The notes beneath the pieces are model-generated. The model searched no databases, was not told where the DNA came from, and worked only from the letters and a program-made list of their open reading frames with translations. Below are positions 8,174 through 51,200 of a stretch of 64,000 nt of DNA, in pieces. How positions within the stretch are numbered: position 1 is the first letter of the stretch; each line of letters opens with the position of its first letter. This DNA is from Escherichia phage vB_Ec-M-J: sequence record OQ718158.1. One strand, 5' to 3'. The position numbers and the translations under genes are program-made.

Positions 8174-9127
8174 ATGACTACATTATGGACTGAAAAATAC
8201 CGCCCACAAACTATGGAAGATTATGTATCGAAGAACGAAGCCCTACGTCAGAAGATGGAAGAATGGATTCGTACTGGTGATATCCCACATATTGGATTTT
8301 TTGGACCAGCAGGGACAGGTAAAACTTCAGCAATCAAAGTACTACTGAATGGTCTGGAAGCTAACGGACACCTTGACCCTAGTGATGTAACAACACTGAA
8401 TATGTCAGATGAAGGTATCGATGCTGTTCGTGACAAAATTGATGCAGCAGCAAAACTATCATGTTTTGGTCGTTATCGTGTATTTGTTCTGGAAGAAATG
8501 GAACAAATGAACCACAAAGCACAGGGTAGCTTGAAACGTGTCATGGAAGATTACCATGAAAATGCTCGTTTCATTCTTACCAGTAATGAACCACATAAGA
8601 TTCAGAAACCTATTATCTCTCGTGTCCAGGTCATCACCATTGAGAAGCATGATATGGAACAATTCATGTCACGCATCTACAACGTACTATTGGCAGAAGG
8701 AGTAGATCTAAGCACTGATGAAAGTATTGAACAAGTACAAAAATACATCAATGCTTCATATCCTGATTTCCGCAAAACGCTAAACGTATTGCAAAGTTCA
8801 GTAGTCGATGGTAAACTTGTAAAACTTGAAGACAGTATTGAGAACTCTGCTGGGTATCGTACTGCCATTGTTGATGCACTAAAAGCTGGTAACATTCGTC
8901 AAATGCGTGAGCAGATCGTGCAAAACATTCCTGATGATGAGATGGATGCATTCTTCTCTTATCTGTATCGTAATGCAGAAATGTTCAGTACTGATGAAAT
9001 TACTCTAATGAAAATTAAGGTTAAGATTCGTGACGCTGTTGTTAAACAAGCTACCGTGTCTGACCGTGAAATGAATCTCAGTGCATTACTGTGTGAGATT
9101 GACCTAATCTGTTCGGGGAACATGTAA
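8174..9127 (+). CDS. 44: sliding-clamp loader large subunit (AAA+ RFC-like), T4 gp44 homologue, 317 aa
   Basis: EKYRPQTMEDYV N-terminus, Walker A GPAGTGKTS, Walker B FVLEEME, SRVQVITI and YPDFRKTLNVLQ match gp44 signature blocks. Confidence 0.9.
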   Translation: MTTLWTEKYRPQTMEDYVSKNEALRQKMEEWIRTGDIPHIGFFGPAGTGKTSAIKVLLNGLEANGHLDPSDVTTLNMSDEGIDAVRDKIDAAAKLSCFGRYRVFVLEEMEQMNHKAQGSLKRVMEDYHENARFILTSNEPHKIQKPIISRVQVITIEKHDMEQFMSRIYNVLLAEGVDLSTDESIEQVQKYINASYPDFRKTLNVLQSSVVDGKLVKLEDSIENSAGYRTAIVDALKAGNIRQMREQIVQNIPDDEMDAFFSYLYRNAEMFSTDEITLMKIKVKIRDAVVKQATVSDREMNLSALLCEIDLICSGNM

Positions 9128-13145: not shown

Positions 13146-13174
13146 TTGACAGTACTGAGTGTTGCCTGTAGAAT
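13146..13174 (+). promoter_or_regulatory. sigma70-type promoter (TTGACA-17-TAGAAT)
   Basis: -35 13146-13151, -10 13169-13174; -10 flanked by inverted repeat gtgttgc/gcaacac. Confidence 0.6.
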
Positions 13175-13220
13175 GTTTATCACTGAGCAACACTATCTTA
13201 AATTAACTGAGGAATACACA

Positions 13221-14363
13221 ATGTCCGAGAAAGAAATCAATCCGAAAAAAGCAACAGTTAAACAAGCCAAAGCAACCAAAACTGCCAAACGTACTACCAA
13301 AACAGCAGCACACACAATTGACGCAACTGATATCTTCGAACAACAGTCCAAGTCACTTCCAGTACTGAAAGATACTAAAGGCAACAGTATGGCTTTAACT
13401 GTGCAGAATATTAATACCATCGGAACCACTGCTGGGGCAGGTGTAGGACGTTTGGCTGATGAAATCATGTCAAAAGTTAACGTCACTGATGATAATACCG
13501 AATTCGGTAAGTCTATTACTACTATCTTGACATTGACTCGTGCAGTTGATATTGATAGTCTACAGGATGATAAATCAATCGTAGGCTGGGTCAAAAAACT
13601 TTTTGTTAATGCTAAACAGAAAGTTGGCGATCAGTACAAAAACAGTAAAGAACAAATTGATGAAATCATGAACACTCTTCAGGTTGGTATTAACCGCCAG
13701 CATGGGGAATGTGCATGGCTAGACACTGCTTACAACGAAAACAAAAACTATCTCTTTGAACTGCGTGATACGTTAGTTGAGTTGGAAGAAGTTACCAAAG
13801 CACAAGATGCTGAATTGGTAGCAATGCAAGCGAACCCTGACGTTGATTCTTTTGCAATCCAGGAGCAAAAGATGATTTGTGAAGCTCTTTCTAAACAGGA
13901 AGATAAGATTCGTCGTCTTATCATGATGTGTGAACTGAGCGGTCCTCGCCTGATGAGTATGAAGAAAGTAAACCTCAACACTGTTTCTAAGTTTGAGGAT
14001 TTGAAATCAGTTGTTATTCCAGCATGGAAATCACAATTGGCTGAACAGTTGATTTCCGAACGTCAACGTAAAGACAATGAGTTGGGTAATCTGATTGACA
14101 ATGAAACTAACCGTTTACTCGAAGTAAACTCTAAAATGGTAGCAACTAACATGTTGGATGCTGCTAAGGCAAATAATCGTGGTATCGTGGATATTAAAAC
14201 ATTGCGTAATGTACACAAAACAATGATCGATAGCATCGAAGCAGTACTGATTGAAGAGAAGAAAGGTAAAGAAGAGCGTGAGCGAGCTAAGATTGAAATC
14301 GCAAAACTCTCTCATGAACTTGAAGATACTCTTCGTGAAATTGCTGAAAAAGCTAACAAGTAA
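13221..14363 (+). CDS. hypothetical Lys/Thr-rich N-terminus, coiled-coil-like protein (380 aa)
   Basis: ORF-track start (TTG 13146) lies in the promoter; first ATG with SD gaggaa is 13221. Confidence 0.75.
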   Translation: MSEKEINPKKATVKQAKATKTAKRTTKTAAHTIDATDIFEQQSKSLPVLKDTKGNSMALTVQNINTIGTTAGAGVGRLADEIMSKVNVTDDNTEFGKSITTILTLTRAVDIDSLQDDKSIVGWVKKLFVNAKQKVGDQYKNSKEQIDEIMNTLQVGINRQHGECAWLDTAYNENKNYLFELRDTLVELEEVTKAQDAELVAMQANPDVDSFAIQEQKMICEALSKQEDKIRRLIMMCELSGPRLMSMKKVNLNTVSKFEDLKSVVIPAWKSQLAEQLISERQRKDNELGNLIDNETNRLLEVNSKMVATNMLDAAKANNRGIVDIKTLRNVHKTMIDSIEAVLIEEKKGKEERERAKIEIAKLSHELEDTLREIAEKANK

Positions 14364-21627: not shown

Positions 21628-22023
21628 ATGAATAATACTATTGGTAGTACAATATCTAAACCACTCTCTTATTACCTTGAAAAATTCAGAAGTACAAATG
21701 GTAAAAAATTTAATGGTATATACCAATTCTCACATAAAGAATATATTACAGTTGATTGTTATTCAAATAAACTTATGTACGTAGATGATACTGAATACTG
21801 TATGAAATTGTCATTGGATGTAGAATTAGATAAGTTAACATTTATTGAATATACATCCAAAAGAACATCATTTCTTGGGAAATGTAATCGAAAAGTATAT
21901 AAAAATATTTCAATGTACTTAAATGAAGATTACCACTTCCAACAAACAACGATTGAAGATGTTCTATTCAGTACTGAAGAATTGAAAGAACTATATTATT
22001 GGTATAAGAAATTTACAACTTGA
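21628..22023 (+). CDS. FQxS-motif family protein (131 aa)
   Basis: NEDYHFQQTTIED. Confidence 0.7.
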   Translation: MNNTIGSTISKPLSYYLEKFRSTNGKKFNGIYQFSHKEYITVDCYSNKLMYVDDTEYCMKLSLDVELDKLTFIEYTSKRTSFLGKCNRKVYKNISMYLNEDYHFQQTTIEDVLFSTEELKELYYWYKKFTT

Positions 22024-22078
22024 CATTATCGTGGATTTATCCTACACTGTAAGATAATGATGAATAGAGGATAAATTT

Positions 22079-22489
22079 ATGAGTTTAGATTTACACAATG
22101 AACTAAAATATTATTTCGATTTGGATATATCACATTTGAACCAACACGTCAATTATATGACTAGTACTATTTGGTGGTCTGATGAGTTTGATGAACCAAA
22201 AATCCAACTTTGTGGTGATTTGTCCGTTTTGAGGTTGTATGCCCTTGATTCGGAAATGAATATCAAGATCACATACATACCATACACAAACAAACTTATT
22301 GTAAACACCCTAAACCCAGTTACAGTATTGAAAATTTCTGATTTGGACACGATACAGTCAGATGAATCACTATTCCAACGTTCTTTGATTGATGATATGG
22401 GTGGTATTTTATATGAAGATATTGTACAATTGAAGAAGATGTATAGTGAATTGTTAGAAATTAAAAACACAGTAATTGTGGGGAGTTGA
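22079..22489 (+). CDS. FQxS-motif family protein (136 aa)
   Basis: SDESLFQRSLIDD. Confidence 0.7.
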   Translation: MSLDLHNELKYYFDLDISHLNQHVNYMTSTIWWSDEFDEPKIQLCGDLSVLRLYALDSEMNIKITYIPYTNKLIVNTLNPVTVLKISDLDTIQSDESLFQRSLIDDMGGILYEDIVQLKKMYSELLEIKNTVIVGS

Positions 22490-22490
22490 T

Positions 22491-22895
22491 ATGGTAAGTT
22501 TACTTGATATTGATAATACCAGTCTAGTACTGGCAAAAAAAGGTGTAATTCCCAATTCTACAAAAATTGATTATGCAGTTATTGAAACAAATATTGGAAA
22601 TATCTGGTATGACTCCGAAAGGGATATTGTGATTAGCTGCGTAGACAGTGACCGTGCTGAGTGTTGTAGGGTTGGTCATGACGGGCAATTTATTTTCGAA
22701 TTCCGTTACTGGAAAGATGCTAAATTCCATCATGAGCATGTTTCAATTACAGGTGTGTATTGCACCGAAGAATCGTTCTTCATGGATAGTACTGTTAATG
22801 ATTTTGGTTCAGTTACATTTGAGTACTATAAAAAAGTATACAACGTATCCAGAGAAGTAATGCGAATCATCAGAAATGCTGAGGGCCAAGATTAA
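22491..22895 (+). CDS. FQxS-motif family protein, FM variant (134 aa)
   Basis: TEESFFMDSTVND; ORF-track TTG start replaced by ATG 22491 with SD ggggag. Confidence 0.7.
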   Translation: MVSLLDIDNTSLVLAKKGVIPNSTKIDYAVIETNIGNIWYDSERDIVISCVDSDRAECCRVGHDGQFIFEFRYWKDAKFHHEHVSITGVYCTEESFFMDSTVNDFGSVTFEYYKKVYNVSREVMRIIRNAEGQD

Positions 22896-22896
22896 C

Positions 22897-23271
22897 ATGA
22901 CTACTATATATGACATTCTAGGTGACTTGAATAAAAATATAGATAATGATTTTGTTATTGTTGGAACTACACAAAATATAATCCATCTTCCATTGGGTAC
23001 ACCAGATAGGTTAATTTTTAATATATACGGAAAAACACTGACATACCTACACAATGGTATGGTTATATTGGTACTTGATATTAAAGAAAATACAATACGA
23101 TATGCATATGACTTCAACGATTATTGGTCAAGAACCCATAGTATTGATATTGAGGAAGATGAACTATTTCAATTGTCGTTAATCGAGAAAAATGTAATAG
23201 GAGTTACCGAAATTGGCATTGTTAAAAAAGCATTAGAATATGTAAATAGCAAATTAAATGGTGAGCTATGA
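22897..23271 (+). CDS. FQxS-motif family protein (124 aa)
   Basis: EEDELFQLSLIEKN; start could instead be ATG 22876. Confidence 0.65.
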   Translation: MTTIYDILGDLNKNIDNDFVIVGTTQNIIHLPLGTPDRLIFNIYGKTLTYLHNGMVILVLDIKENTIRYAYDFNDYWSRTHSIDIEEDELFQLSLIEKNVIGVTEIGIVKKALEYVNSKLNGEL

Positions 23272-23723
23272 TGAAAATTGATGAAATAAAAAATCATTTT
23301 GAAATTGCATTGTCTTGTAAATTTGATGGCTCTTATGTTCCTGATCCAGAAGAGATAATTAGAATTTCCACATCGTTTTCGGAAGAGTACAATGTTCTTA
23401 TTGAGAAAACATATGACAGTACTGAACTCGCATTTTACAATAAGAATTCACGAACAACAACATTTATATTATTATATAACACAACATCGGATATAATAGA
23501 AATTATAACATGTAAAACAAGCAAAGATATACATTATGAGACTATCTCAAATGTGAGTTATTGCTCAACTGAAGAAGGATACTTTCAGGAATCTCTTATT
23601 AAAAATTTAACAGTTAGTTATTCTGATTTAAGCACTATAATCAATTGTGTTGAAAAGCTAAATGATTTCGTTCTATCTATGTTTGATATCACAGAGCAAA
23701 ACCCGAAGGTAATCAAATGCTAA
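23268..23723 (+). CDS. FQxS-motif family protein (151 aa)
   Basis: TEEGYFQESLIKN. Confidence 0.7.
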   Translation: MMKIDEIKNHFEIALSCKFDGSYVPDPEEIIRISTSFSEEYNVLIEKTYDSTELAFYNKNSRTTTFILLYNTTSDIIEIITCKTSKDIHYETISNVSYCSTEEGYFQESLIKNLTVSYSDLSTIINCVEKLNDFVLSMFDITEQNPKVIKC

Positions 23724-24172
23724 ATCCAGGACAGTTTTTTCATTTACTTGGTATTACACCTATACCGGATTTAATCAGTGAAGCGAATCAATATCGTGAT
23801 ATAGGAATTGTATCTATGGAATACGATTCACCTGACTTTAAATGTTACGTAACATATGATTTGGTAGCCTATGAGTCAGAAACTGAGATAAAAAAACCAT
23901 CATACATTTTTGTGTTCATATATAATGATTATAGTGGTGATCTACTCAATGATGTTCATATTGACACATTTGAAATATGTGATAATATTATAACAGATGA
24001 TTCATCATGTACATTTGATTTATCAGAAAACAGTACTGAAGAGGCACTTTTTCAGTTGAGTACTGTTAGTGACACTGTACTAACTCTTGATGACATTGAG
24101 AAATTTAAAGAACAGCTTGACGCAGTACGTGAGATGTTCTATAATCATTATCCAGAAATCGAGTTCAATTAA
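23717..24172 (+). CDS. FQxS-motif family protein (151 aa)
   Basis: TEEALFQLSTVSD. Confidence 0.7.
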   Translation: MLNPGQFFHLLGITPIPDLISEANQYRDIGIVSMEYDSPDFKCYVTYDLVAYESETEIKKPSYIFVFIYNDYSGDLLNDVHIDTFEICDNIITDDSSCTFDLSENSTEEALFQLSTVSDTVLTLDDIEKFKEQLDAVREMFYNHYPEIEFN

Positions 24173-24186
24173 CTAAAGGTATCAAA

Positions 24187-24447
24187 ATGACTAAAGTAGT
24201 TCGTAAACGCCACATGATGAACATGGATGAATTTCGCACCTTTGACAAATACCGTACTATGTTTCGTATGCTGTCACAGGGCCGTCCAATCGTCATTGTA
24301 ACGGAGAATTACATGTCACCTGAGATGATGTTCGGTAATTATGAAAAGGTCTTCATGTTGTACGTGAAGCGTGAATTGCTAACGATTAAGACCTTAGCTG
24401 AAGCTACAGATGAAGATATGGATGGTGATAATACATTTACCATGTGA
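24187..24447 (+). CDS. hypothetical protein (86 aa)
   Basis: ORF with SD. Confidence 0.6.
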   Translation: MTKVVRKRHMMNMDEFRTFDKYRTMFRMLSQGRPIVIVTENYMSPEMMFGNYEKVFMLYVKRELLTIKTLAEATDEDMDGDNTFTM

Positions 24448-24455
24448 GGAAATAT

Positions 24456-24533
24456 ATGGCAGAAAAACCAAAAGAACCATTGGACCGTGATGATGATTTT
24501 TACGACGAACGATATGGGGAATCAGATGAGTGA
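24456..24533 (+). CDS. very small acidic ORF (25 aa), not in ORF track
   Basis: ATG with SD tgagga 6 nt upstream; overlaps next start by 8 nt. Confidence 0.3.
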   Translation: MAEKPKEPLDRDDDFYDERYGESDE

Positions 24534-24777
24534 ACATCGTGCAGTACTTAAAAAGATTTTAAATGAACTTGGTGATGAGTTTAATGTTACTGAAGAAGAA
24601 TATCAATGTTGGAAGAAGGATTTTGAACTCCTTGCTGAGTATGATAAAGTCTTCAATATGATTGGTGTCATTAGCCAGTACTTACTTGGTGGTGGTCGAG
24701 CCAGTGCTTCAATTCTTGCATCTGCGATCATCTGTACTTCTCGATGGTGCGATGAAAAAAGTCTGGAAGATTTCTAA
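24526..24777 (+). CDS. hypothetical protein (83 aa)
   Basis: ORF-track GTG 24487 replaced by ATG 24526 (SD gggga). Confidence 0.55.
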   Translation: MSEHRAVLKKILNELGDEFNVTEEEYQCWKKDFELLAEYDKVFNMIGVISQYLLGGGRASASILASAIICTSRWCDEKSLEDF

Positions 24778-24829
24778 ATAAGATGCTATAATGTATTATA
24801 GTACCTTAACAATATAAAAAGGATTTTAT

Positions 24830-25690
24830 ATGAAACCTATCAGAGTACTGTCACTTTTTAATGGAATGAGCGTTGGATATATGGCATTGGCAGATGCAGG
24901 TATTCCAGTTGAAAAATATTACTCATCTGAAATTGACAAGTACGCAATTGCTGAATCTTCCGAGAATTTTCCTGATATTATCCAGTTAGGTGATGTGACT
25001 AAGTGGAAAGAATGGGATATTGAGTGGGATAAGATAGATTTACTCATGGGAGGATTCCCATGTCAAGCCTGGTCTGTTGCTGGTAAGCAAGGTGGCTTGA
25101 ATGATATACGTGGACAGTTATTTTTGGTTATGGTTGACATTTTTGAGCACATCAAAAGTGTAAATCCAAACTTGCAATTTCTGTTCGAGAATGTTAAAAT
25201 GAAGGAAGATTTCAAAGAATACATTAATAGTATTTTAGGAATCACACCAGTACTGATAAATTCCCAGCATTATACGCCTCACTTCAGGCAGAGATACTAC
25301 TGGTGCAGTACTGATAAGCTTTTTATACCACCTGCATTATCAAATGCCCCTAAACTTCAAGATATCATTGAAGATGGTTGGTACACTGACAGAACCGCTT
25401 CGTACTGTATAGATGCTAACTATTTTAAGGGTGGTGATTGTAACCAGTACTTTAATAAATCAAGACGACAGTTGGTGTTTCGTGACCCAACGATTAATCG
25501 TCAATATCTATTGGAGAATGGTAAAAGAAATATTGACTATAGACACTTAAGTGTAGTAGAATGTTGTAAATTACAGGGTATTCCTGTAGATTTCTTTAAA
25601 GTGTCTAGTAAGACACAAGCATACAAAATGCTTGGAAATGGATGGACTATGCCAGTTATATCACACTTACTAAGAGAGATATTCTTTTGA
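24830..25690 (+). CDS. DNA (cytosine-5) methyltransferase, 286 aa, orphan
   Basis: Motif I LFNGMSVG, motif IV GFPCQAWS, motif VI LFENVK, C-terminal KMLGNGWTMPV; no adjacent restriction gene. Confidence 0.85.
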   Translation: MKPIRVLSLFNGMSVGYMALADAGIPVEKYYSSEIDKYAIAESSENFPDIIQLGDVTKWKEWDIEWDKIDLLMGGFPCQAWSVAGKQGGLNDIRGQLFLVMVDIFEHIKSVNPNLQFLFENVKMKEDFKEYINSILGITPVLINSQHYTPHFRQRYYWCSTDKLFIPPALSNAPKLQDIIEDGWYTDRTASYCIDANYFKGGDCNQYFNKSRRQLVFRDPTINRQYLLENGKRNIDYRHLSVVECCKLQGIPVDFFKVSSKTQAYKMLGNGWTMPVISHLLREIFF

Positions 25691-25692
25691 AC

Positions 25693-26172
25693 ATGAAGAA
25701 CTACCCCACCTATACTGAACGTGTAATGAAATTTCAACGTCAGTCATCAAAGGAAGAATTAGAATTTAATTTGTACTATCCTAATATTGGTGATGAGGTA
25801 TTCTATTGTTCTCATACAAAGAATGGAACTTTACTTAAATCTGGTAAAGGTATTATTGTTGATATGATTAGCACTTTCAAAGGTAAACTTAATGTAATGT
25901 ACAAAGTACAAGATTCAAGTACTGAGTGCATTCATGAAGTGATGCATAATATACCTGCATATCCAAAGGATTTTGTTGAGCTAATATCTCGAAGGGAGAA
26001 ACCTATGTTTTATTGTGGTTATGACAAACTAACCAAACAAATTATTCCTAATACTATGGGAAAATTTAAAAGTGATGTTAAAACTGAACTTAATAAGAAA
26101 TTAGGTTCATCATGGGAAACTGAAAACGAATTCATCGAAATTCGTTTGATTGAAGTTACTATACTCGATTAA
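25693..26172 (+). CDS. hypothetical protein (159 aa)
   Basis: First ATG after MTase stop, in frame with ORF-track 25642. Confidence 0.6.
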   Translation: MKNYPTYTERVMKFQRQSSKEELEFNLYYPNIGDEVFYCSHTKNGTLLKSGKGIIVDMISTFKGKLNVMYKVQDSSTECIHEVMHNIPAYPKDFVELISRREKPMFYCGYDKLTKQIIPNTMGKFKSDVKTELNKKLGSSWETENEFIEIRLIEVTILD

Positions 26173-26178
26173 TTACAG

Positions 26179-26201
26179 ATCCACGCTATGCGTGGATTTT
26201 T
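26179..26201 (+). terminator. Rho-independent terminator
   Basis: atccacgc tat gcgtggat then tttt. Confidence 0.7.
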
Positions 26202-26216
26202 CATAGGTGCATATAT

Positions 26217-26729
26217 ATGACAGTTCCTTATGTTAAAATTATTAATAATATCCTTGATTCGTGGGAAGATGTTATTACTGGTAAAAAGAAACCAATGCCA
26301 GTATACGCACTAACCGGAAGACTACAATTCAGAATGTCAAACCAAACTGAAACTTTTAATAATCATGATGTTCACATTACTATAACACCTGTACGTATTG
26401 TAATTAAAAAAAATCAAGATGATGAATTGACATTATCTATTGGTAGTGATAAAATCATTTTAAGTAATTTATCCGAAGAAGAATTCTTTCAACGTAGTAC
26501 TATCATCGATATGAAAGATTTCACATATGAATCATTGGTTGAAGTCAATGCACGTTTCAACGATATTCAGGAACGATTGCGACCAATCCTCCGCAAAGAA
26601 GAAGAAGCATGGAATGAAAGTGTGAGAAAAATGCAAGAAATGTTGAAAGAAAATATTAACAATCTGGGTAAAGCTACAATGGAATTTGGTAAATCTTTTA
26701 AACTGAACTTTTCAAAGGATCGTAAATGA
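26217..26729 (+). CDS. FQxS-motif family protein (170 aa)
   Basis: SEEEFFQRSTIID. Confidence 0.7.
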   Translation: MTVPYVKIINNILDSWEDVITGKKKPMPVYALTGRLQFRMSNQTETFNNHDVHITITPVRIVIKKNQDDELTLSIGSDKIILSNLSEEEFFQRSTIIDMKDFTYESLVEVNARFNDIQERLRPILRKEEEAWNESVRKMQEMLKENINNLGKATMEFGKSFKLNFSKDRK

Positions 26730-27181
26730 AAATTGATAATTTGATTCATGTCTTAGGGACTTTACATAAAATATTATTACATCTTAACGAGATGAATAAA
26801 CTAGGTTATAATGTCCATAATGTATTTGAACCTACATTTAAATATAACTCAATCACTGGAGATGGTAATTACATAATCGAATATACATATGAAACCGATC
26901 CAGACTTCTATCCTCTTACGTTGCGAATTTATCCAACAAGTCCGATAGGCATTCACGATATATCATCAATTTCACTTGATCCAGATGGTGAAACGAGTAT
27001 TGAATACAATAATGATTCAAAACCAGAATTTTACATTGATGATATTAAAAAGTTGTTCAATGATGAATATGTTTTCCAACAAAGTACTGTGCATGATGTT
27101 GGTAGTACTAATGGGCAATTTTGGAATACATGTTATTATCATATGATTGAAATTTGTAAATTACTAAAAGGTGTTGAATAA
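26726..27181 (+). CDS. FQxS-motif family protein (151 aa)
   Basis: NDEYVFQQSTVHD. Confidence 0.7.
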   Translation: MKIDNLIHVLGTLHKILLHLNEMNKLGYNVHNVFEPTFKYNSITGDGNYIIEYTYETDPDFYPLTLRIYPTSPIGIHDISSISLDPDGETSIEYNNDSKPEFYIDDIKKLFNDEYVFQQSTVHDVGSTNGQFWNTCYYHMIEICKLLKGVE

Positions 27182-27564
27182 TGAAATACTGCATTGAAGT
27201 ACATTACACTACAGGTGATACTGAAAATTGTTATGACGTTCTTAATACAATTGATATTCAATGGTCTTCTAAAGAGGAAGCAGTTGCTGCTTTACAGTGC
27301 CTAAAAGAGCATTGGGTGTTTTATATGAAGCAAGATAATTGCTATACAAAAGAACACGAAACCATCGTCGAAAATGCTAAACAAAAAGAGTGGTTTGACC
27401 CAATATCACCAGCATATTCATTCTTGGTTAAAGTTGGTGATGTGACAGTTCCATTACGAACACCGTGGAACGGCTACTTTGAAACTCTTCATAATGCACG
27501 AGTTGTCGCTGTTGATAACCCTGAACAAATCGATTTCGATTCATTGGACTGGAAAAAACTATGA
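27181..27564 (+). CDS. hypothetical protein (127 aa)
   Basis: ATGA-coupled ORF; no family motif. Confidence 0.65.
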   Translation: MKYCIEVHYTTGDTENCYDVLNTIDIQWSSKEEAVAALQCLKEHWVFYMKQDNCYTKEHETIVENAKQKEWFDPISPAYSFLVKVGDVTVPLRTPWNGYFETLHNARVVAVDNPEQIDFDSLDWKKL

Positions 27565-28004
27565 CAGTACTGCACCGATTGAAGAAGGTTAAGCATCCAG
27601 TTGTATATGAGGACTGGAAACGACAGAAGTTGCTGGGTGATTTTTATTACCCAAAATCTAAAGTTCTTGCGAATTCAAGATGTACATATTGCACACATAA
27701 TCATAAAGATACAGTATTTGTTGAAATGGGTTTCCATCCATCAAACACAATGTTCACTACTAACCAAACGTTTTACAAATTTCATATACAAAAAGATTCA
27801 TTTACTGTTATGATTATAAAACATTTAGTTGAAGATCTGGCATTCAGTGAAGAACGAGTACCTTTATCATTAGTGGATATTCCTTATAATAATTTAGAGG
27901 AAATGTACTTCCAACAGTTGACAGTACAAGAAAACTTTGGTATGATAGGACTTCAAGAGTTAGAGATGATTAAGCAAATTCGTGATATCTACTTTAAGGA
28001 GTAA
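27561..28004 (+). CDS. FQxS-motif family protein (147 aa)
   Basis: LEEMYFQQLTVQE. Confidence 0.7.
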   Translation: MTVLHRLKKVKHPVVYEDWKRQKLLGDFYYPKSKVLANSRCTYCTHNHKDTVFVEMGFHPSNTMFTTNQTFYKFHIQKDSFTVMIIKHLVEDLAFSEERVPLSLVDIPYNNLEEMYFQQLTVQENFGMIGLQELEMIKQIRDIYFKE

Positions 28005-28006
28005 CT

Positions 28007-28150
28007 ATGCCAGTACGTAACAGTACTTCACGCTTTACGCTTCAACAGAAAGCAGATCTTTTGAATATGGCAAACAAAGATTCTAATTTTCACTATCTAG
28101 TACTCGGTGGTTCAGTTGAAAAGATTGACCTACGTGAGTGTATGAAATAA
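28007..28150 (+). CDS. small ORF (47 aa), not in ORF track
   Basis: ATG with strong SD aaggag 7 nt upstream. Confidence 0.45.
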   Translation: MPVRNSTSRFTLQQKADLLNMANKDSNFHYLVLGGSVEKIDLRECMK

Positions 28151-28166
28151 CAAAAAGGGGACTAAA

Positions 28167-28337
28167 ATGAGTCTACGTGAATCATGGGAACAATTTAAAG
28201 AAGAGATTGGTTATCGTGGTGTCAAAATCGAACCAATCAATCGCACCGAAAGCATCAAAGCTAGTACTAATGGCACTACCTATGATCGTTATGATGAAAA
28301 GTATGGTTTACATTCTAAACCAAAGGATACTGAGTAA
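28167..28337 (+). CDS. small ORF (56 aa), not in ORF track
   Basis: ATG with SD aagggga. Confidence 0.35.
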   Translation: MSLRESWEQFKEEIGYRGVKIEPINRTESIKASTNGTTYDRYDEKYGLHSKPKDTE

Positions 28338-28480
28338 TGGTGTATACTAATATTTTTACTGGTATTATGCGTAAGTTTGTTAATGGTATTGGATATGTAT
28401 CCAATGACAACGGTAGTACATGGGTAAAAAATAATACGTCAGAATCTTTAGTGAAAAGTCTTCCGTATTATAAAGCTTGA
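28337..28480 (+). CDS. small ORF (47 aa), not in ORF track
   Basis: Start overlaps upstream stop (TAATG). Confidence 0.3.
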   Translation: MVYTNIFTGIMRKFVNGIGYVSNDNGSTWVKNNTSESLVKSLPYYKA

Positions 28481-28505
28481 CACATGAAAATGGAGTATGT
28501 ATAAT
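28477..28505 (+). promoter_or_regulatory. sigma70-type promoter (TTGACA-17-TATAAT)
   Basis: -10 flanked by inverted repeat ggagtat/atactcc. Confidence 0.55.
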
Positions 28506-28537
28506 ACTCCTATATTAATCAAATGAGGATATACGAA

Positions 28538-29110
28538 ATGGCTGGTGTTGATAAAATTTGTGAATTCAGTGGCGATTATGAAGGTTACGAAATGTACAAG
28601 TCCAAGCGTAATCACATTCAAGTTCTGTCAAAGTACCGTAAAGAATTCCGAGGACACAAAGCAACATTGTATGTTTTTGAGAATGGATATTCTGAAGTTT
28701 TCACAAGTGGTGGGTATAGTACAGCTAACATGGCACATATCAACCCAAACCCAACTGAAGATGATTGGAATAGTGGTAACGCTTTTCGTATTTCAATTTT
28801 GAATAAAATGAATCGTTACGACCGTTATTGTACATTCTTTGAAAATATTTCAGAATACAAGCAAGCATTAAAGAAATATAATCAACGCTTACTAATGAAT
28901 TATGATTACATTCTTCATGTTCCTACTGTTCCAGGTCAGGTTAATGGTCTGTATACGAACAGTACACATGATTTAACTGCGGTGAAGCGTCGCCTCAAAC
29001 GTATGTTGGGTTGTGGTAATTTAACAATCAAGGTTATGCGTAATGAATCAATGTATAACTTTTTAAATGTACTACACTACACATTGAAGGATAATAATGG
29101 AAACGATTAA
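28538..29110 (+). CDS. hypothetical protein (190 aa)
   Basis: ATG 28538 with SD gaggat 7 nt upstream. Confidence 0.65.
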   Translation: MAGVDKICEFSGDYEGYEMYKSKRNHIQVLSKYRKEFRGHKATLYVFENGYSEVFTSGGYSTANMAHINPNPTEDDWNSGNAFRISILNKMNRYDRYCTFFENISEYKQALKKYNQRLLMNYDYILHVPTVPGQVNGLYTNSTHDLTAVKRRLKRMLGCGNLTIKVMRNESMYNFLNVLHYTLKDNNGND

Positions 29111-35396: not shown

Positions 35397-35512
<116 letters not shown>

Positions 35513-35516
35513 AAAT

Positions 35517-35602
<86 letters not shown>

Positions 35603-35619
35603 CAATTAAAGGTTAAACC

Positions 35620-35780
<161 letters not shown>

Positions 35781-35784
<4 letters not shown>

Positions 35785-35941
35785 CACATGAAGAATGGAT
35801 GAATGACATTAATTTTAGATATTCGGGTATCGGTAAATGGCTAAAGTATCATTGGGAATTCATTTCAGAGCCACATCTGTATGATAAACTTATCAACGAT
35901 CCAGCATATGAAATGTACTTAATTGAACTACTGGTACGAAT

Positions 35942-35945
<4 letters not shown>
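35781..35945 (+). CDS. small protein, MTHEEW mini-family copy 2 (54 aa)
   Basis: MTHEEWMNDINFRYSGIGKW...; near-identical 5' 50 nt to copy 1. Confidence 0.5.
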
Positions 35946-36113
<168 letters not shown>

Positions 36114-36114
36114 G

Positions 36115-36536
<422 letters not shown>

Positions 36537-36540
<4 letters not shown>

Positions 36541-36565
36541 CTAAATAGTTCAGTACTGATATAAT
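36537..36565 (+). promoter_or_regulatory. sigma70-type promoter, repeated cassette copy 2
   Basis: Identical 22-nt ttgactaaatagttcagtactg then aTATAAT; -35 overlaps stop codon. Confidence 0.6.
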
Positions 36566-36571
36566 GAATTC

Positions 36572-36912
36572 CACAATCAGACGTATATGGTGTAAGTTAC
36601 GTCGATGTAATCCAGAACAAGATCTCTGGTACTCTAGGAAGTGGTGAATGTTAACCTAGACGGGTTTGATAATTGGACGATAGGCAATTATTACTTGACT
36701 AGCAGGTTTAAACTAGAGGTGACAGTCCTTTACCAAACTGGAAAACCGGATGGACTTTTATTTAAAAGGGTAAGGCGTGGAAATATGTTTACAGTAGTTG
36801 CTTTTAGTAGCCTGTACGCCCCACGTCAAGGTAGCCGAAAGGCAAGTTAAAACGGGTGGTTATAAAGCTGAATTAACAGCGGCGTTTAAAAGCGTCACCA
36901 TCCATTTTTTTT
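36572..36912 (+). ncRNA. candidate structured non-coding RNA (~340 nt), unknown class
   Basis: No well-initiated ORF; locally elevated GC; several hairpins; bounded by promoter copy 2 and T8 run at 36905-36912. Confidence 0.3.
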
Positions 36913-36928
36913 AATTAAAGTTGGTGAT

Positions 36929-37568
<640 letters not shown>

Positions 37569-37572
37569 CAAA

Positions 37573-37730
<158 letters not shown>

Positions 37731-37755
37731 CAAAAAAAAACAATGAGAGGTATAA

Positions 37756-38253
<498 letters not shown>

Positions 38254-38254
38254 T

Positions 38255-38286
<32 letters not shown>

Positions 38287-38330
38287 GATTCCCGATTCAG
38301 TAGTTTTAAAGCAGACCCGTATGTGCCTAT

Positions 38331-38422
<92 letters not shown>

Positions 38423-38441
38423 AGAGGTACTTCGAGTATGC

Positions 38442-38493
<52 letters not shown>

Positions 38494-38582
38494 TCAGTAC
38501 TACTTTTTAATTGACATATCATTGGATGAGGTGTAATATGGTTCAAGAAGAAAACTGGGGTTTTTAACACAAAGAGGCCAAT

Positions 38583-38629
<47 letters not shown>

Positions 38630-38654
38630 TGCTGCACCTATGCCTACTCTTGGC

Positions 38655-38725
<71 letters not shown>

Positions 38726-38726
38726 A

Positions 38727-38766
<40 letters not shown>

Positions 38767-38894
38767 TCAGGTCGATTAGTTAAAAGAGTATAACACGGAC
38801 CTTGTAAGTCTGAATAATCAGTGCAATTCTGATATTGACCTCAAAAATGATATTTTTCTTACATATAAATACTCCATAATATATGGAGAACTAT

Positions 38895-50231: not shown

Positions 50232-51200
50232 GTGAAAAAGCTTGATTTAAATGCAATTTCTGAAGAAGTACTGGATGAGTGTTTTGCTAGTGAAGAAGTC
50301 AACGTATTAGAGGCTCTTGATTCCGTAGAAGAAGAAGAAGAACATGACGGTCACAAGTTTGAGAAACCAAAAACAGGTATCAGCTTAACTCGCCCTAAAG
50401 GGATAACGAATGAAATGCTCATCCAAGCAGTGCGTGATGGCATAGACGTTAAAAAGAACATTGACCTTTTGGTTCGCTACAACTATCCAATGGTAGTAAG
50501 TGTTGCACGTAAGTGTACATGTTTTATCCCATTTGAAGATAAGATTTCTTATGGTGTTGAAGGTTTAATGCGAGCAATTCATACGTTCGACACTACCAAA
50601 AATGTTAAGTTCATTACATATGCAACAACAACTGTGTACATGACAATCTATAACGAAAGTGCAGATGCTAATTATCTAGTGCATTTCCCACGTTATATGA
50701 GTGTTAATAACATTTATGTGAAACGTTGTGTTGAAGAGTATCAAAGGAAACATGGTAAATACCCAACTCCTGAGATGGTGTCAAAAGAGACTGGTATTGA
50801 GATTCAACACGTTAAGAATTGTCTAACTTACAATAACACTTATGTAGCATTGAATATGAAAATGAGTAATGATTCAGAAAGTACATTATCTGACATTGTT
50901 ACTTCAGTTGAACCTGATTACAACTTAGGTGTAGAAACTGTCAGTACCCCACTGGTACAAAGTATTGCAGAAATGATGAGTAACCTATCTACCAAAGACC
51001 GTGAATTGATTGAACGTGTACATGGTATTGGTTCTTATTCTGAACCAGAAACGCTACGAGAAATCATTGAGAGTGGTTTTGAAGATGAGAAGGGTAAGGT
51101 CATGACTGCTCGTTCTTCATTGCACCGTAAGTACTCTGAAGCAATGGAACGACTGCGTAAGATGGTTAAGACAAAAGGTTATGAGTTCGAAGATTTTTAA
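50232..51200 (+). CDS. sigma-70 family RNA polymerase sigma factor (322 aa), GTG start
   Basis: Region 2 ISYGVEGLMRAIHTFDTTKNVKFITYATTTVYMTIYNE, linker KYPTPEMVSKETG, region 4 HTH at C-terminus; GTG after SD aggaga. Confidence 0.85.
   Translation: MKKLDLNAISEEVLDECFASEEVNVLEALDSVEEEEEHDGHKFEKPKTGISLTRPKGITNEMLIQAVRDGIDVKKNIDLLVRYNYPMVVSVARKCTCFIPFEDKISYGVEGLMRAIHTFDTTKNVKFITYATTTVYMTIYNESADANYLVHFPRYMSVNNIYVKRCVEEYQRKHGKYPTPEMVSKETGIEIQHVKNCLTYNNTYVALNMKMSNDSESTLSDIVTSVEPDYNLGVETVSTPLVQSIAEMMSNLSTKDRELIERVHGIGSYSEPETLREIIESGFEDEKGKVMTARSSLHRKYSEAMERLRKMVKTKGYEFEDF

Follow-up and report, generated by a model that had tools for sequence, protein, structure and literature searches.

What does the reading frame that opens at position 24,830 of a stretch of coliphage DNA encode, where would its product act, and what could the phage gain from it? 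The stretch, 64,000 nucleotides of Escherichia phage vB_Ec-M-J (record OQ718158.1), is called the window below. A previous sequence-only reading had assigned to this locus an orphan C5-cytosine DNA methyltransferase that lacks an adjacent restriction endonuclease gene, and had suggested that it serves self-protection or epigenetic marking by 5-methylcytosine (5mC) rather than, or in addition to, hypermodified cytosine. In this analysis the product of the gene is predicted to be an intact stand-alone C5-cytosine DNA methyltransferase (MTase) of an Asteriusvirus jumbo coliphage (121Q/PBECO4-type), whereas the part of that reading which concerns hypermodified cytosine finds no support.

Identity, relatives and neighbours of the gene

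The protein matches the Pfam profile PF00145 (C-5 cytosine DNA methylase) with E = 4.7e-37 and 128.6 bits (cutoff 22 bits) and TIGR00675 (dcm) with 117.2 bits (curated cutoff 100.65 bits), and both scores thus exceed the curated cutoffs of the C5-MTase profiles. It also matches phrog_116, 'DNA methyltransferase' (E = 1.2e-58), and the Type II and orphan MTase models of PADLOC, the best of which is MTase_II (E = 9.6e-38). The G+C content of the gene is 36.4%, that of the whole window 34.9%. The presence of all hallmark motifs in a protein of 286 residues is confirmed by these profiles, by motif reading (Table 1) and by an alignment of the MTase with 44 homologues of 48-96% identity. Throughout these 45 sequences F10, G12, E34, P77, C78, E120, N121, V122, R153, R155, R238, L240, E244, G269, N270 and G271 are invariant; E34 constitutes motif II, and G54-D55-V56 motif III. 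Conservation of the catalytic cysteine of the PCQ motif had been named beforehand as a point at which the assignment could fail, and with C78 invariant in the 45 sequences the claim stands. Motif I, FNGMSVG, is a variant of FxGxGG, and the same variant is found in the 'FDGIATG' of DNMT3 (the FxGxSxG form). Asn270 of motif X is kept, which, in the light of the work on M.MpeI N374K, fits ordinary use of SAM and not of carboxy-SAM.

Table 1. Positions, in the window, of the MTase gene, its motifs and adjoining features.
Feature	Position	Strand	Remarks
C5-cytosine DNA methyltransferase gene (predicted)	24830..25690	+	ORF, ATG start, 286 aa plus stop
Shine-Dalgarno-like AAGGA	24819..24823	+	6 nt 5' of the MTase ATG; direct sequence reading
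Motif I, F10-N-G12-M-S-V-G16	24857..24877	+	SAM-binding loop, DNMT3-like variant; F10, G12 invariant; aligned to DNMT3B 'FDGIATG'
Motif IV, G74-G-F-P77-C78-Q79-A-W-S82	25049..25075	+	P77, C78 invariant; aligned to DNMT3B PC(N)
Catalytic Cys78 codon	25061..25063	+	within motif IV
Motif VI, E120-N121-V122	25187..25195	+	invariant, 45 sequences
Motif VIII, R153-Q-R155	25286..25294	+	R153, R155 invariant; aligned to DNMT3B 'RARYFW'
Short target-recognition region, ~aa 160-237	25307..25540	+	between motifs VIII and IX; sequence reading
Motifs IX-X (R238..E244; G269-N270-G271-W272) and C-terminal helix	25541..25687	+	R238, L240, E244, G269, N270, G271 invariant
Downstream ORF, function unknown	25642..26172	+	phrog_28599; overlaps MTase 3' end; no Pfam/PADLOC match

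The AlphaFold model of the protein (pLDDT 90.4, pTM 0.89) has the two-domain MTase fold, with the target-recognition domain (TRD) placed between motifs VIII and IX. The TRD, in which the 45-sequence alignment reveals a conserved block from D187 to Q214 (SYCIDANYFKGG...KSRRQ), is the lower-confidence part of the model (pLDDT of the block 66-86).

Over the 5 kb around the gene, identity is 99.5% with Escherichia phage EC.P1 and 99.2% with fEgEco12; with 121Q, 81% of this stretch aligns, at about 91% identity. All three are jumbo phages of the genus Asteriusvirus, with genomes near 350 kb. The gene call is already known, as it is annotated in many GenBank records: an identical MTase is named 'DNA methyltransferase' in fEgEco12 (g455, 100% identical), EC.P1 and WPEC3, and the 96% identical orthologue gp91 of 121Q 'DNA-cytosine-methyltransferase'. 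The gene is also mentioned, from annotation only, in the papers on Sharanji (as 'modification methylase HaeIII'), UE-S1, CBB and RaK2. These phage orphan C5-MTases (PHROG 116; gp91, g455 and those of the RaK2-like phages) are the same gene, of the same length and with the same motifs, and gp91 and g455 lie among small hypothetical genes just as the MTase in the window does, so that nothing differs. A tblastn search with the protein returned 252 phage records, with at least 80% identity in 33. Identity is 74-76% in EJP2 and XbC2 (Mimasvirus; 76% in XbC2); it drops to 63% in K64-1/RaK2-like Klebsiella phages and to about 50% in coliphages of the phi92 type. Orthologues occur across the RaK2-like phages, and a large protein collection holds more than 8000 homologues.

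Alleles interrupted by an intein are found within this lineage. The UE-S1 orthologue (UES1_076) has 626 codons, including a 340-aa intein (Hint plus LAGLIDADG) between P77 and the catalytic Cys, which forms its +1 residue. TH47 (95.7% identical, 350 kb) carries a 1027-bp intein insertion at the same codon, and its alignment with the window breaks exactly at 25061/25062. In both alleles, with inteins of 340-342 aa, the extein is an orthologous MTase and the intein directly precedes the catalytic Cys, whereas the window allele is intein-free. In ph0011 the 5-kb region around the gene, taken as a whole, is about 1 kb longer. Inteins typically occupy conserved active sites of proteins that need to stay functional, and their placement here fits a site that matters for catalysis, in a gene under selection.

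MTases of lytic phages usually have no partner endonuclease. The ten ORFs flanking the gene (23268..29110) have no Pfam match above cutoff, no PADLOC match and only PHROGs of 'unknown function', and as far as similarity goes the earlier statement that no restriction endonuclease is adjacent was right; the cognate endonuclease of a Type II restriction-modification system is not seen among them. The orphan label holds as a prediction from absent recognisable similarity, not as proof. The neighbours of the gene in 121Q, fEgEco12 and UE-S1 likewise carry hypothetical annotation. The ORF immediately downstream, which has an alternative ATG at 25687 overlapping the MTase stop, has no similarity to nucleases, and a scan for (consensus) promoters and terminators around the gene gave nothing above shuffled or chance expectation. 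Several of the neighbours make up a divergent paralogous family with the common C-terminal block '[ED]E..F[QM].[ST][TL][IV].[DN]'.

Likeness to DNMT3 and to other methyltransferases

The closest solved structures are, unexpectedly, the catalytic domains of animal DNMT3A/B/C and not bacterial enzymes. In a Foldseek search with the model the top 50 hits are all DNMT3 (3B, 3A and 3C catalytic domains, TM about 0.8), with bacterial MTases absent from these 50. Sequence comparison gives the same order, with E about 1e-23 and an end-to-end alignment for DNMT3, 7e-17 for M.HhaI and 1e-15 for M.HaeIII. The phage MTase and DNMT3 have in common a compact domain of about 285 aa with a short TRD, and the forms of motif I (SLF(D/N)G(I/M)(A/S)xGY), motif VIII (HR/FRxRY(F/Y)W) and motif X (LG(R/N)(S/G)W(S/T)xPVIxHL). 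However, motif IV is PCQ in the phage enzyme and PCN in DNMT3, the phage protein consists of the catalytic domain only, lacking PWWP and ADD, and neither the CpG-reading TRD residues of DNMT3 nor its R882-region loop are conserved. The similarity is therefore one of fold and core, not of family membership. A literature search, which did not cover Iyer et al. 2011, found no earlier recognition of a DNMT3-like phage clade; what emerges is a clade of compact phage MTases that resemble the catalytic domains of animal DNMT3 more closely, in sequence and fold, than they do the classical enzymes of bacteria.

M.HhaI and M.HaeIII differ from the phage MTase in that the latter has no cognate endonuclease and a shorter, unrelated TRD. 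The specificities of both are unsupported by the phage genome, which is without GCGC and purged of GGCC-containing hexamers (see below), and where the Sharanji and slurp01 records say 'M.HaeIII', they give only the name of the best hit.

The gene product could also be thought of as an RNA methyltransferase (tRNA C38-type) like DNMT2, acting on the phage's own tRNAs. This is highly improbable, as the matches to DNMT2 (E about 1e-9) are much weaker than those to DNA MTases (1e-23 to 1e-15), and the CFT motif, which is specific to DNMT2, is absent from the TRD (residues 160-237). The DNA of RaK2, moreover, is reported to contain 5mC.

Cytosine modification and the target site

Pathways that combine a phage C5-MTase with TET are known, and the MTase could by that model make 5mC as a first step of hypermodification (TET/JBP-type oxidation, then glycosylation), or could coexist with hmC-type DNA. 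The probability of this is minute. The ten neighbouring ORFs have no similarity to TET/JBP, glycosyltransferases or hydroxymethylases. With E. coli ThyA as the probe, a single gene of the ThyA family is found in TH47. Its product shares 45% identity with the probe and has retained, in 'GVPFNISSY', the Asn that specifies dUMP rather than dCMP. The check for a dCMP hydroxymethylase which the sequence-only reading had proposed came out negative as far as this one probe in TH47 reaches. T-even-type hmC, glucosyl-hmC or full substitution by 5mC would block many restriction enzymes of the kind listed below; ClaI (ATCGAT) and NruI (TCGCGA) are blocked by CpG methylation, HindIII by AAGm5CTT and SexAI by Dcm-type methylation. 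Virion DNA of fEgEco12 was cut by EcoRI, NsiI, SpeI, SexAI, PshAI, ClaI, AflII/AflIII, NruI and HindIII, and according to its authors every digest pattern was equal to the in-silico prediction (SmaI is also in the methods list, which makes nine or ten enzymes, and the supplement says AflIII, not AflII). As the enzyme of fEgEco12 is identical and its virion DNA is digested normally, hypermodified cytosine is unsupported. In the papers on RaK2 and CBB, too, genes for hydroxymethylase or glucosyltransferase were not found. Of the marks of an hmC pathway, an Asp-type ThyA paralogue is thus missing from TH47, glucosyltransferases from what the RaK2 and CBB papers describe, and restriction-resistant DNA from fEgEco12. 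The phage DNA is without bulk cytosine hypermodification, and the hypermodification reading is largely refuted; of the earlier interpretation there remains the intact C5-MTase with no recognisable partner endonuclease, while 5mC 'in addition to' hypermodified cytosine is unsupported.

The same digests restrict the target site. As they ran as predicted, methylation must lie outside the tested contexts or be incomplete; general CpG, AGCT, inner CCWGG, TCGA and CGCG look excluded as targets, provided that the virion DNA was fully methylated. This conflicts with the paper on RaK2, whose orthologue is 63% identical: it reports 5mC by bisulfite sequencing, with CpG methylated, and digestion only by methylation-tolerant enzymes, in both cases as data not shown there. 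A flank-restricted CpG, such as ACGT, would reconcile the two. No Asteriusvirus methylomes were found in a literature search.

That the MTase is a CpG methyltransferase, general or flank-restricted (e.g. ACGT), like DNMT3A/B and as claimed for RaK2, is unlikely, even though several observations favour it. Besides the RaK2 report and the CpG specificity of the nearest solved structures, CpG is under-represented (rho 0.76) and TpG/CpA over-represented (rho 1.24), and synonymous third-position C has a frequency of 0.167 when G follows and of 0.28-0.32 when it does not, throughout the 16 codon families. ACGT and the hexamers CACGTG, TACGTA and AACGTT are not purged. However, ClaI and NruI cut the DNA of fEgEco12, which speaks against general CpG specificity of the identical enzyme, in contrast to DNMT3, and the aligned TRD does not keep the residues with which DNMT3 reads CpG. 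In 40 kb of a Kuravirus, where no homologue was found, CpG is depleted just as strongly, and two homologue-bearing contigs lack the depletion; it is therefore not diagnostic, and I dropped it as proof of CpG methylation. Nor did a scan of the substitutions between the window and TH47 show an excess at CpG over GpC. A related scan for hypermutability of 5mC, by C/T differences between the same two sequences, had TGGc and GGcA as its top contexts, which reflect turnover of the rare codons GGC/GGT and not a methylation motif.

Site avoidance, AGTACT and the proposed role

The main visible anti-restriction strategy of the phage is the avoidance of sites, on an unusual scale, as counts in TH47 show and a null of synonymous codon shuffling confirms. 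Many 6-mer palindromes occur 0 or 1 times where 10-53 are expected: CTGCAG is absent (53 expected), as are CAGCTG (36) and GGTACC (31), and CCATGG (43) and GGATCC (26) are each found once. Also absent are GGTCTC (32 expected), GRGCYC (31) and CYCGRG (23), and GGYRCC is seen 3 times (70 expected). GGCC itself is present in the window at 27 copies against 24 expected. In TH47, however, every GGCC-containing palindromic hexamer and YGGCCR are purged, which makes protection of GGCC, as implied by the 'M.HaeIII' label, doubtful, and a HaeIII-like specificity was dropped.

The most extreme case is GCGC, with 0 copies in the window (25 expected) and 0 in TH47 (172 expected, or 196 by codon shuffle with z = -17), whereas the 4-mer that comes second in depletion still reaches 0.46 of expectation. 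It is also missing from a K64-1-like phage (34 expected) and from XbC2 (44.5 expected), despite their different hosts, and a purge so complete, whatever the host, suggests a cause within the phage itself; phi92-like, T-even, T7-like and Kuravirus coliphages have GCGC at normal frequency. These counts could mean that the MTase targets GCGC, eliminated from the phage lineage, and acts on host DNA only, for example by marking the chromosome for Type IV (McrBC-like) or phage nucleases. I consider this very unlikely. The evidence is circumstantial, as a phage-encoded or widespread host nuclease for GCGC would explain the purge without any MTase; the TRD has no similarity to M.HhaI beyond the catalytic core, and GCGC is retained in phages that bear a homologue.

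The opposite is seen for AGTACT, by a wide margin the most over-represented hexamer, with a 4-5-fold excess in the lineage. The window has 171 copies and the 350 kb of TH47 have 909. In coding sequence the count of 764 is 3.6 times the mean of synonymous codon shuffles (214; z = 41), and the excess holds in each of the three codon phases; CAGTACTG is observed 203 times against 26 expected. The enrichment is common to the K64-1-like Klebsiella phage and to the Mimasvirus XbC2, and hence to three RaK2-like genera. In five other coliphage sequences AGTACT is scarce (observed/expected 0/26 by an order-2 model, or 0/15.4 at maximum order; 0/5.4; 4/7.6; 3/11.9; 1/11.2), which suggests ScaI-type restriction pressure, and hence that abundant sites would need protection. 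The MTase may thus methylate the C of (A)GTAC(T), the excess being a dense self-mark or some 900 otherwise dangerous sites being protected. Along the same lines, GTAC lies outside the contexts covered by the published digests, C/T differences at its C are few when the window is compared with TH47 (a rate of 0.35 times the average), and only two DNA MTases are annotated in fEgEco12, the identical copy of the window MTase and a 174-aa PF05869 Dam-type enzyme, one of which might protect or mark AGTACT. However, there is no direct tie between motif and MTase, the motif could just as well be due to the Dam-type enzyme or to a DNA-binding protein, phages with homologues of about 50% identity are not enriched in it, and enriching a methylation target is without established precedent. 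On balance I hold AGTACT to be an unlikely target. An attempt to tie AGTACT or GCGC to the gene through unrelated homologue-bearing phages (the phi92-like VEcB and the contigs of P0032, P0052 and P0045) was abandoned, no association being seen at about 50% identity.

More broadly, the DNMT3-like MTase could be one arm of a system of self-marking in the RaK2-like lineage, in which it would methylate (C)AGTACT(G), a palindrome found about once per 385 bp and, by this reading, kept by selection in all codon phases and in three genera. Together with the purge of GCGC in the same lineage, such marking would let the phage tell its own DNA from that of the host. This is quite improbable. If true, AGTACT marking and the GCGC purge could serve a phage nuclease that destroys the host chromosome. 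In the RaK2-like jumbo phages the MTase stands alongside an extreme, host-independent grammar (no GCGC, AGTACT at 4-5-fold, dozens of purged 6-mers), and its target would tell whether methylation simply covers the sites that avoidance has left exposed or is linked to the grammar itself. Experimental follow-up is worthwhile for the core with its likeness to DNMT3, for the alleles with an intein, and for the anomalies of GCGC and AGTACT across the lineage.

Phage orphan MTases as a rule protect the phage against restriction by the host, and by this analogy such a role is plausible here. The most likely reading, which I hold to be probable, is an active orphan C5-MTase, predicted from the sequence, that is made early and confers protective methylation on phage DNA; activity, timing and role are what I infer. 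Cys78 of PCQ would attack C6 of the flipped-out target cytosine, with E120 of ENV and R153/R155 holding the base, SAM would be bound by motifs I-III and X, and the methyl group would go to C5. Judged from the position of its gene in a block of small genes, the MTase would be made early in infection and methylate replicating phage DNA at a short sequence motif, by which progeny DNA would withstand those restriction enzymes of the host for which the genome could not lose every site. Early expression is suggested by the block around the gene and the sigma-70-like factor in the window (50232..51200), which match the predicted early region of CBB, where the small ORFs CBB_390-546 take in both the sigma factor CBB_513 and the position of the MTase CBB_399.

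Two considerations qualify the protective role. McrBC is specific for 5mC in purine-C context, and such 5mC would make the phage a target of this enzyme in K-12 hosts, which counts against protection; Sharanji, a relative, grows on K-12. As site avoidance and not site tolerance dominates the genome and is its dominant anti-restriction signature, methylation may be a minor layer or one with a different purpose. Apart from the MTase and the sigma-70-like factor, a clamp-loader-like ATPase and five tRNA genes lie in the window.

Absence of GCGC and avoidance of restriction sites

In the window, the tetranucleotide GCGC is completely absent (0 observed vs. 25 expected over positions 1-64000), and the same holds for 350 kb of the related phage TH47 (0 vs. 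172), for a K64-1-like Klebsiella phage (0 vs. 34) and for the Mimasvirus XbC2 (0 vs. 44.5). Among the remaining 4-mers the lowest ratio is 0.46 of expectation, leaving GCGC alone below that value, and in other coliphages GCGC occurs at normal frequency. The purge of GCGC spans the lineage irrespective of the host and so suggests a cause intrinsic to the phages, for instance a GCGC-specific nuclease.

Many 6-bp restriction sites are purged as well, in TH47 and in the window. Examples, with observed/expected counts for TH47, are CTGCAG (0/53), CCATGG (1/43), CAGCTG (0/36), GGTACC (0/31), GGATCC (1/26), TCCGGA (0/22), GGTCTC (0/32), GGYRCC (3/70), GRGCYC (0/31) and CYCGRG (0/23), and the longer motif CCTNAGG (0/17). 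By contrast, no avoidance is observed of GAATTC, GATATC, GTGCAC, CACGTG, CCTAGG, ACGCGT or TCGCGA.

AGTACT excess and CpG depletion

By far the most over-represented hexamer is AGTACT, with 171 copies in the whole window and 909 in TH47. Within coding sequences it reaches 3.6 times the mean of synonymous codon shuffles (z = 41), the excess being present in all three codon phases, and the 8-mer CAGTACTG is observed 203 times vs. 26 expected. This enrichment is common to three RaK2-like genera (represented by TH47, the K64-1-like phage and XbC2), whereas the hexamer is under-represented in other coliphages.

The window also shows depletion of CpG (rho 0.77) with an excess of TpG/CpA (1.26), and in each of the 16 codon families, third positions with a synonymous C/T choice carry C about half as often when the next base is G. 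As phi92-like and Kuravirus coliphages show a like depletion and third-position bias, this pattern is not specific to the phage studied here.

The methyltransferase gene, an intein in its orthologues, and its neighbours

The orthologues of the C5-cytosine DNA methyltransferase in phage UE-S1 and in TH47 carry an intein of about 340 aa, consisting of Hint plus LAGLIDADG, with its insertion point immediately ahead of the catalytic Cys in the PCQ motif (GGFP/C...VVHN/CQAWS, with slashes at the junctions). The same intein is probably present in phage ph0011, as its methyltransferase region is about 1 kb longer; the allele in the window is without intein. The sole further DNA methyltransferase found is a 174-aa Dam-type N6-adenine enzyme (PF05869, NPPY motif), and despite its presence GATC is under-represented in the genome, at 0.46 of expectation.

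The methyltransferase is flanked by at least nine small open reading frames (131-170 aa) that form a very divergent paralogous family with the common C-terminal block [ED]E..F[QM].[ST][TL][IV].[DN]. Two starts are annotated in related phages for the downstream open reading frame: position 25642 in fEgEco12, resulting in a 49-nt overlap with the methyltransferase (25642-25690), and 25687 in 121Q, resulting in an ATGA-type overlap. Elsewhere, the window encodes five tRNAs (Ser-tga, Ser-gct, Met, Asn and Thr).

Coordinates of features in the window and in related phages
Feature	Sequence	Position	Remark
Clamp-loader-like AAA ATPase	window	8174-9127	
TelA-like protein	window	13146-14363	
Paralogous small-ORF family	window	21628-24172 and 26217-28004	common C-terminal block
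AGTACT, examples	window	24032, 24059, 24543, 24677, 24844, 25249, 25307, 25446	
tRNA genes	window	35423-38842	
Sigma-70-like factor	window	50232-51200	regions 2 and 3
Intein-bearing orthologue	UE-S1	L003:1501-3381	
Intein insertion	TH47		matches window 25061/25062
Dam-type N6-adenine enzyme	TH47	L004:48196-48720 (-)	fEgEco12 counterpart Gp162
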